Part shown: one piece after another, positions 22,071-22,753 of the stretch
How the letters are laid out: each line of letters opens with the position of its first letter
Position numbering within the stretch: position 1 is the stretch's first letter
Origin: a virus
Lineage: Duplodnaviria > Heunggongvirae > Uroviricota > Caudoviricetes
DNA: 22,753 nt
Reading direction: 5' to 3' (one strand)
IMG/VR virus record: IMGVR_UViG_2526164651_000008
Span: 1-22,753 of that record
Translations under genes and position numbers: made by a program
The notes under the pieces: model-generated
The model's input: the letters and a program-made list of their open reading frames with translations, nothing else
What the model was told of the DNA's origin: nothing
The model's database searches: none

Positions 22071-22753
22071 TGAAGTGGCACACTGAATTTGGCCACCTGA
22101 ACAGAGGTGATATGCTCACCTCAGAACAACACAGGTGCTCCAATGAAAAAAGAAATTTTAGCGCAGAGTTTAAACGCGAATCCGCTCAACTGGTTGTTGA
22201 CCAGAAATACACGGTGGCAGATGCCGCCAAAGCTATGGATGTTGGCCTTTCCACAATGACAAGATGGGTCAAACAACTGCGTGATGAGCGTCAGGGCAAA
22301 ACACCAAAAGCCTCCCCCATTACCCCGGAACAAATTGAAATCCGTGAGCTCAGGAAAAAGCTACAACGCATTGAAATGGAGAATGAAATATTAAAAAAAG
22401 GCTACCGCGCTCTTGATGTCAGACTCCCTGAACAGTTCTCGATAATCGGGAAACTCAGAGCGCATTATCCTGTGGTCACACTCTGCCATGTGTTCGGGGT
22501 TCATCGCAGCAGCTACAGATACTGGAAAAACCGTCCTGAAAAACCAGACGGCAGACGGGCTGTATTACGTAGTCAGGTACTTGAGCTACATGGCATCAGC
22601 CACGGTTCGGCCGGAGCAAGAAGCATCGCCACAATGGCAACCCGGAGAGGCTACCAGATGGGACGCTGGCTTGCTGGCAGGCTCATGAAAGAGCTGGGGC
22701 TGGTCAGCTGTCAGCAGCCGACTCACCGGTATAAACGTGGTGGTCATGAACAT
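22071..22753 (+). mobile_element. IS911 (IS3 family), partial; left end and 5' part, running off the window
   Basis: Starts TGAAGTGGCACACTGAATTTGGCCACC, exactly where identity to the full IS600 copy ends. It encodes IS911 OrfA/OrfB-like sequence. Confidence 0.8.
22143..22753 (+). pseudogene. IS911 orfA-orfB with altered homopolymer tracts (5' A-run one base short; slippery-site A-run one base long)
   Basis: ATG followed by A6 rather than the A7 needed for [21 protein letters not shown]..., so the OrfA body is out of frame with its ATG. At 22393-22400 the frameshift window is A7G rather than A6G, which places the OrfA body and the OrfB sequence (...[44 protein letters not shown]...) in one continuous frame to the window end. 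Confidence 0.6.

Follow-up and report, generated by a model that had tools for sequence, protein, structure and literature searches.

Altered A-tracts in an IS911 copy beside truncated IS600 at the end of a Shigella flexneri draft contig: probable homopolymer miscalls

IS911 and IS600 at the right end of the window

Both IS911 and IS600 are well-known insertion sequences. IS911 (IS3 family, IS3 group) is found on the Shigella flexneri plasmid pCP301 among many other replicons, and its copies make OrfA together with the OrfAB transposase, the latter through programmed -1 ribosomal frameshifting at an A-rich slippery site. In engineered alleles of IS3-family elements, lengthening this site from A6G to A7G fuses orfA and orfB through the extra A, and comparable fused OrfAB constructs have reportedly been made for IS911. 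An extra A in the A6G window of IS2 (giving A7G) likewise produces a frame-fused transposase with the authentic OrfAB sequence (PMC3219604).

The DNA analysed here (the window, the whole stretch of 22,753 nucleotides) ends inside an IS911 copy that is written with the same A7G, as well as with a shortened A-run directly after the orfA start codon. The features at this end of the window are as follows.

21528..21752, + strand: truncated lambda gpZ-like minor tail gene (from the ORF list; the identical 74-aa product is recorded with Pfam Minor_tail_Z)
21734..22070, - strand: right-end fragment of IS600, 337 of 1264 bp (by identity to IS600; Pfam rve_2/rve_3)
21777-22001, - strand: C-terminal 74 codons of the IS600 transposase
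22071..22753, + strand: first 683 bp of IS911, comprising IRL, orfA and the start of orfB (99.6% identity to IS911)
22112..22114, + strand: upstream ATG with GAGGTGAT just before it, a putative start (from the sequence and the frame-3 translation)
22143..22145, + strand: native orfA start codon (the annotated IS911 transposase CDS start in NCTC9064 and CP034059, and alignments)
22146..22151, + strand: A-tract 1, A6 where references have A7 (judged a homopolymer undercall)
22257..22259, + strand: TGA closing the native-ATG frame if A6 is taken literally, for a 38-codon product
22393..22400, + strand: A-tract 2, the programmed -1 frameshift motif, A7G where references have A6G (judged a homopolymer overcall)
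22443..22445, + strand: orfA stop codon TAA in the canonical orfA frame (from the frame-1 translation)
22570, + strand: private C>T substitution (10 IS911 copies compared)

Over its 683 bp, the window IS911 is 99.6% identical to IS911 ORF1/ORF2 of pCP301 and to many other S. flexneri plasmids. It shows the same identity to loci annotated by NCBI as 'IS3-like element IS911 family transposase', and 98-98.5% identity to E. coli copies, within the range of at least 95% used here to assign an element to IS911. The left end and the orfA/orfB organisation are like those of pCP301 IS911, and Shigella-type SNPs (e.g. the K at the DQKYT position) are common to the two; from the Shigella plasmid copies, the window copy differs only by the two tracts and the C>T at 22570. 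Its terminal inverted repeat, with 5'-TG, reads TGAAGTGGCACACTGAATTTGGCCACC from 22071, and identity to the reference copies begins exactly there. Pfam finds HTH_Tnp_1 (E = 5.6e-16) and HTH_21 on its translation; the rve domain lies beyond the window end, and is recorded in the 389-aa full-length product of the orthologous copy described below.

From 22071, the left end of IS911 (TGAAGTGGCACACTG...) directly abuts the IS600 fragment. This 337-bp fragment begins with the TGAGGTGTACTGGCAATAG end, as does the full 1264-bp IS600 at 15665-16928 of the same window, from which it differs by 1 mismatch. Annotated IS600, as in pO157 Sakai, in CP022408.1 and under the label 'IS3-like element IS600 family transposase', shares 99.7% identity with it. 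IS600 breaks the gpZ-like gene at 21734, and the open reading frame runs into the IS600 end before reaching a stop codon. The full-length IS600 has the tail-assembly-chaperone gene on one side and the rusA/Q genes on the other, and its flanking triplets (CAA vs ATA) do not form a target duplication of 3 bp.

The same IS911 copy in a finished chromosome

Draft contig AFGY01000037.1 (assembly GCA_000213735.2) ends in 11,226 bases that match the right end of the window byte for byte, and judging from this match the window is the terminal 22.7 kb of that contig. IS911 is incomplete in the window because the contig ends inside the repeat. The assembly belongs to S. flexneri K-227, and GCA_000213715.2 to K-272 (table in PMC6397287).

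The truncated gpZ product of 74 aa is specific to this insertion, and served as a handle for finding orthologous loci in other assemblies. In the finished chromosome CP026803.1, both the gpZ::IS600 junction and the IS600/IS911 junction are as in the window, and among the 10 IS911 copies checked, only these two have the private T at 22570. Since this T and the junctions are common to both, the IS911 of the window and that of CP026803.1 are one copy by descent. Across the aligned region, the finished chromosome comes from a very close relative of K-227 (1 substitution in 20.4 kb), which does not imply that the strains are the same. Among independent assemblies, only CP026803.1 spans this IS911 copy; contigs assembled from short reads end at the IS600 boundary. 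We also looked for a second finished ortholog, and the IS600/IS911 junction was absent from all 29 canonical IS911 loci of species-representative genomes.

In CP026803.1 the element is complete (1250 bp), with its right end (...GACCACTTCA) lying beyond the part covered by the window, and it is 99.84% identical to pCP301 IS911 with 0 gaps. It has A7 at tract 1 and A6G at tract 2, with orfA and orfB in the 0/-1 arrangement, whereas the two are fused at A7G in the window. On the comparisons presented below, we attribute this discrepancy of phase to assembly error.

The original prediction described IS911 as nested inside IS600, starting exactly where the partial IS600 ends. The left junction is indeed exact (22070/22071), but the right flank is not IS600. 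In CP026803.1, the next feature after IS911 is a fragment of a resolvase/invertase gene, with an open reading frame that runs into the IS911 end, and after this fragment comes another IS3-family element (positions 10544-12255 of locus L007); the remaining 927 bp of IS600 are absent downstream of IS911 within the 8.4 kb available there. A target-site duplication of 3-4 bp is likewise absent in CP026803.1, where the flanks read ...GATC/IS911/TCTG... (triplets ATC vs TCT). This absence points to later rearrangement and is not an argument against the identity of IS911. Most economically, IS911 would first have inserted into IS600, and afterwards a deletion would have occurred next to it, or it would have recombined with another IS911 copy.

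IS600/IS911 junctions are commonplace in Shigella. In pCP301, IS911 also directly abuts a truncated IS600, but at another IS600 position and in another orientation. We discarded a microhomology junction, which a BLAST match of IS600 reaching 7-8 bp into IS911 had raised as a candidate; this part of the match is a mismatched extension, and IS600 identity ends at 22070.

Tract lengths, reading frames and homopolymer discordance

The orfA start codon is followed by A7 in E. coli NCTC9064, E24377A and QML220601, in S. flexneri pCP301 and CP034059, and in the chromosome CP026803.1; CP102214.1 is the sole aligned reference copy with A6. The slippery motif is A6G (A AAA AAG) in every aligned reference copy, vs A7G in the window. 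Both tract lengths reported for the window (A6 at 22146-22151 and A7G at 22393-22400) are present, and the reference lengths that the original prediction gave, A7 and A6G, are those of the aligned copies, with the one exception of CP102214.1 at tract 1.

The frame consequences drawn from these lengths also hold. With A6, the orfA body is out of frame with the native ATG, whose own frame reaches the TGA at 22257-22259 after 38 codons, and A7G joins the orfA body to orfB. Between 22073 and 22753 the orfA-body frame has no stop and passes through A7G straight into orfB, and the peptide across this junction is that of the authentic -1 frameshift product. The further claim that such a copy cannot make OrfA or regulated OrfAB from its native start overlooked an in-frame ATG upstream. 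With A6, the ATG at 22112-22114 is in frame with the orfA body; in a canonical Shigella-type copy it opens a 16-codon ORF only. Because the ATG at 22112 lies in the orfA-body frame, a frame-fused and N-terminally extended OrfAB is possible on paper. This point is moot if the tract changes are errors. In the canonical copy, the 16-codon ORF (GAGGTGAT-ATG, 22104-22114, in the IS911 leader) overlaps the start of orfA.

To compare the draft with the finished chromosome beyond IS911, two CP026803.1 loci (L016 and L007) were joined and aligned to positions 2371-22753 of the window (20.4 kb). The two sequences differ by 1 substitution and 7 single-base indels. All 7 indels fall in homopolymers of true length at least 6, with none outside runs, and 6 of the 7 are undercalls. 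They are located as follows.

3993-3999: A7 in the window, A8 in CP026803.1
12979-12985: T7 in the window, T8 in CP026803.1
18195-18201: T7 in the window, T8 in CP026803.1
19239-19243: T5 in the window, T6 in CP026803.1
20734-20738: T5 in the window, T6 in CP026803.1
22146-22151 (IS911 tract 1): A6 in the window, A7 in CP026803.1
22393-22399 (IS911 tract 2): A7 in the window, A6 in CP026803.1

By true run length, 3/3 of the 8-mers are discordant, 1/5 of the 7-mers and 3/23 of the 6-mers, compared with 0/930 of the 3-5-mers. The run at 12979-12985 is T8 in seven other assemblies (CP026803.1, the K-272 draft, three NCBI drafts and two Logan read-run assemblies). The tape-measure gene is split (320 + 264 aa) in the window only, and encodes 620 aa elsewhere. 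Across these assemblies, the T7 is a clear assembly error and not the mark of a pseudogene. Because seven assemblies carry T8 at this position, the draft is wrong at long homopolymers. The opposite possibility, that the finished genome is wrong instead of the draft, was rejected: the seven assemblies back T8, and the finished versions restore intact genes. The discordances occur in homopolymers only, become more frequent as runs lengthen and disrupt genes that are otherwise intact, as artefacts of run length do. We infer that at both IS911 tracts, too, it is the draft and not the finished genome that is wrong.

Several other differences and peculiarities were seen along the window. The A7 at 3993-3999 lies near a split gene of the tail-fibre region (DUF4376), called as 57 + 125 aa in the window where the finished genome has 205 aa. 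The only substitution in the 20.4 kb, at 17200, is a T for C that turns CGA into TGA, giving a rusA-like gene of 44 aa vs 119 aa; either a genuine nonsense mutation specific to the strain or an error could account for it. Positions 1-2370 are not collinear with CP026803.1, the match starting at 2371, and the ipaH gene region differs, with an NEL-only product of 325 aa in the draft contig, while that of the finished genome has 583 aa and includes LRR. The gpJ tail-tip gene (6217-9692, - strand) is split into ORFs of 930 aa and 228 aa in every assembly, the finished one included, and on this comparison its frameshift appears genuine, unlike the homopolymer ones. The prophage is also heavily rearranged: tail genes on one strand adjoin late-regulatory genes on the other, and an IS110-family element is present too.

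Flow-based (pyrosequencing-type) drafts infer run length from signal intensity, and their resolution drops as runs lengthen. We take assemblies of the AFGE/AFGX/AFGY type to be 454 pyrosequencing drafts. The pattern in the window matches the textbook homopolymer-length errors of flow-based or error-prone drafts in all respects compared. Given the error rates of this draft, it is unremarkable that both IS911 tracts should be miscalled (a chance of roughly a few percent to about 10%), and the prior of a real double mutant is orders of magnitude lower than the probability of two miscalls.

On this evidence, A6 and A7G are very probably homopolymer miscalls in the draft, and the element a canonical IS911. 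The region would then be an ordinary IS911 abutting a truncated IS600, within a decayed lambdoid prophage of S. flexneri K-227. The copy in the organism most likely has A7 behind the orfA start codon and A AAA AAG as its slippery site, and would make OrfA, plus OrfAB by programmed -1 frameshifting, like other IS911 copies. The A6 and the A7G would be consensus errors in run length, and the pairing of a -1 with a +1 change would be coincidental and without biological meaning. The original prediction had left open whether the changes are real or artefactual. The canonical finished ortholog and the length-dependent indel pattern support the second possibility, and the first finds no support, both tracts being of canonical length in the orthologous copy of CP026803.1.

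Tract variants elsewhere and the case for real mutations

Variants of the two tracts also occur in other assemblies. The K-272 draft has A6 at tract 1 of the same locus, and its contig ends before tract 2. In GCA_000211975.2 (AFGE), two different full-length IS911 insertions both have A6 at tract 1 and a normal A6G; they are on contigs AFGE01000025.1 and AFGE01000020.1, where orfA is annotated as fragments of 38 and 69 aa. The 38-aa ATG-start product matched only two IS911 copies, both in this AFGE draft, and a look-up of the 50-aa GTG-start product of the A6 frame found no record. Since three drafts with neighbouring prefixes (AFGE, AFGX and AFGY) have A6 and finished Shigella sequences have A7, tract 1 seems to be systematically undercalled, and the A6 of the AFGE insertions is probably the same systematic miscall.

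A search of complete E. coli genomes for the exact A6 70-mer gave 8 records, all of plasmids: the 103-kb AW1.7 plasmid and seven plasmids of 142-148 kb from human isolates. The sole A6 plasmid copy examined, that of p120899_146, is truncated. The exact A7G 61-mer was found in 1 record among 5,426 complete E. coli genomes (LD93-1), where tract 1 is normal. The LD93-1 copy (NZ_CP047662.1, 1282095-1283265) is IS911/ISEc52-like and annotated as 'frameshifted'; its A7G may be a true allele with a frame-fused transposase, or else a homopolymer error of long-read sequencing. The double variant (A6 with A7G) had 0 matches in a pattern search of species-representative genomes and none in complete E. 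coli genomes. As a control, the pattern for the canonical pair matched 29 copies in species-representative genomes, 13 of them in a single S. flexneri chromosome (SFBU1023). From these searches, each tract change exists in nature singly as a rare defect, and a copy with both was not found in the collections searched.

These single variants give some room to the reading that only one of the two changes is an error. A6 could be a genuine inactivating frameshift in a dead, decaying copy, with A7G a sequencing error, or the reverse. Decayed IS copies are numerous in Shigella genomes, the A6 of the eight finished plasmid records is apparently a genuine variant, and four assemblies have A6 in a total of five copies (K-227, K-272, two in AFGE, and CP102214.1). 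However, the finished copy in CP026803.1, with the private SNP and both junctions, has A7, and the A6 drafts come from one accession batch (AFGE, AFGX, AFGY). A6 in two independent AFGE insertions is also more easily explained as a systematic miscall than as identical mutations, and 13/13 copies in the finished SFBU1023 chromosome are canonical. We therefore regard a single genuine change as improbable.

Less probable still, and in our view hardly credible, is that both changes are real. The copy would then be a natural deregulated mutant without OrfA, making a frame-fused OrfAB from the ATG at 22112 with no need for frameshifting. In such a mutant, which we consider just as doubtful, the native ATG would give only a 38-aa out-of-frame peptide, and the N-terminus of OrfAB would gain a net 10 residues, with 13 residues replacing MKK. 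The fully open frame is consistent with this, as are the Shine-Dalgarno-like GAGGTGAT beside the ATG at 22112, the exact OrfAB junction peptide encoded across A7G, the A6 of the K-272 draft at this locus and the known route to frame fusion by an A6G-to-A7G change in the related IS2 (PMC3219604). Against it, a finished genome has canonical lengths at both tracts of the copy that is the same by descent, and 20 kb of the draft contain five further homopolymer indels and no other type of indel, one of the five (12979-12985) being contradicted by seven other assemblies. The double variant is in none of the collections searched, and GAGGTGAT abuts the ATG, which is probably poor spacing for initiation. 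Such a mutant would resemble the engineered A7G constructs, which overproduce transposase, but the likeness is limited: those are deliberate laboratory mutations expressed from the native start, whereas the window has its native start out of frame, and the DNA itself most likely lacks the change. Taken together, the evidence is strongly against a real deregulated mutant.

Were both changes true after all, which we think very unlikely, this copy would be a constitutively 'on' source of transposase, able to cause IS911 and IS3-family rearrangements in trans in the IS-rich Shigella. It would also parallel, in nature, the frame-fused transposase alleles made by engineering, and might drive IS expansion in Shigella. 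With homopolymer miscalls as the preferred reading, the main value of the finding is in quality control, as it exposes a draft contig with about 1 homopolymer-length error per 3 kb. Because of this error rate, frameshifts, pseudogenes and 'mutated slippery site' calls made from the draft contig are suspect, the split tape-measure gene of the window among them. The frameshift motifs of IS3-family elements are especially exposed, and are easily misread as regulatory mutants because the motifs are themselves homopolymers.
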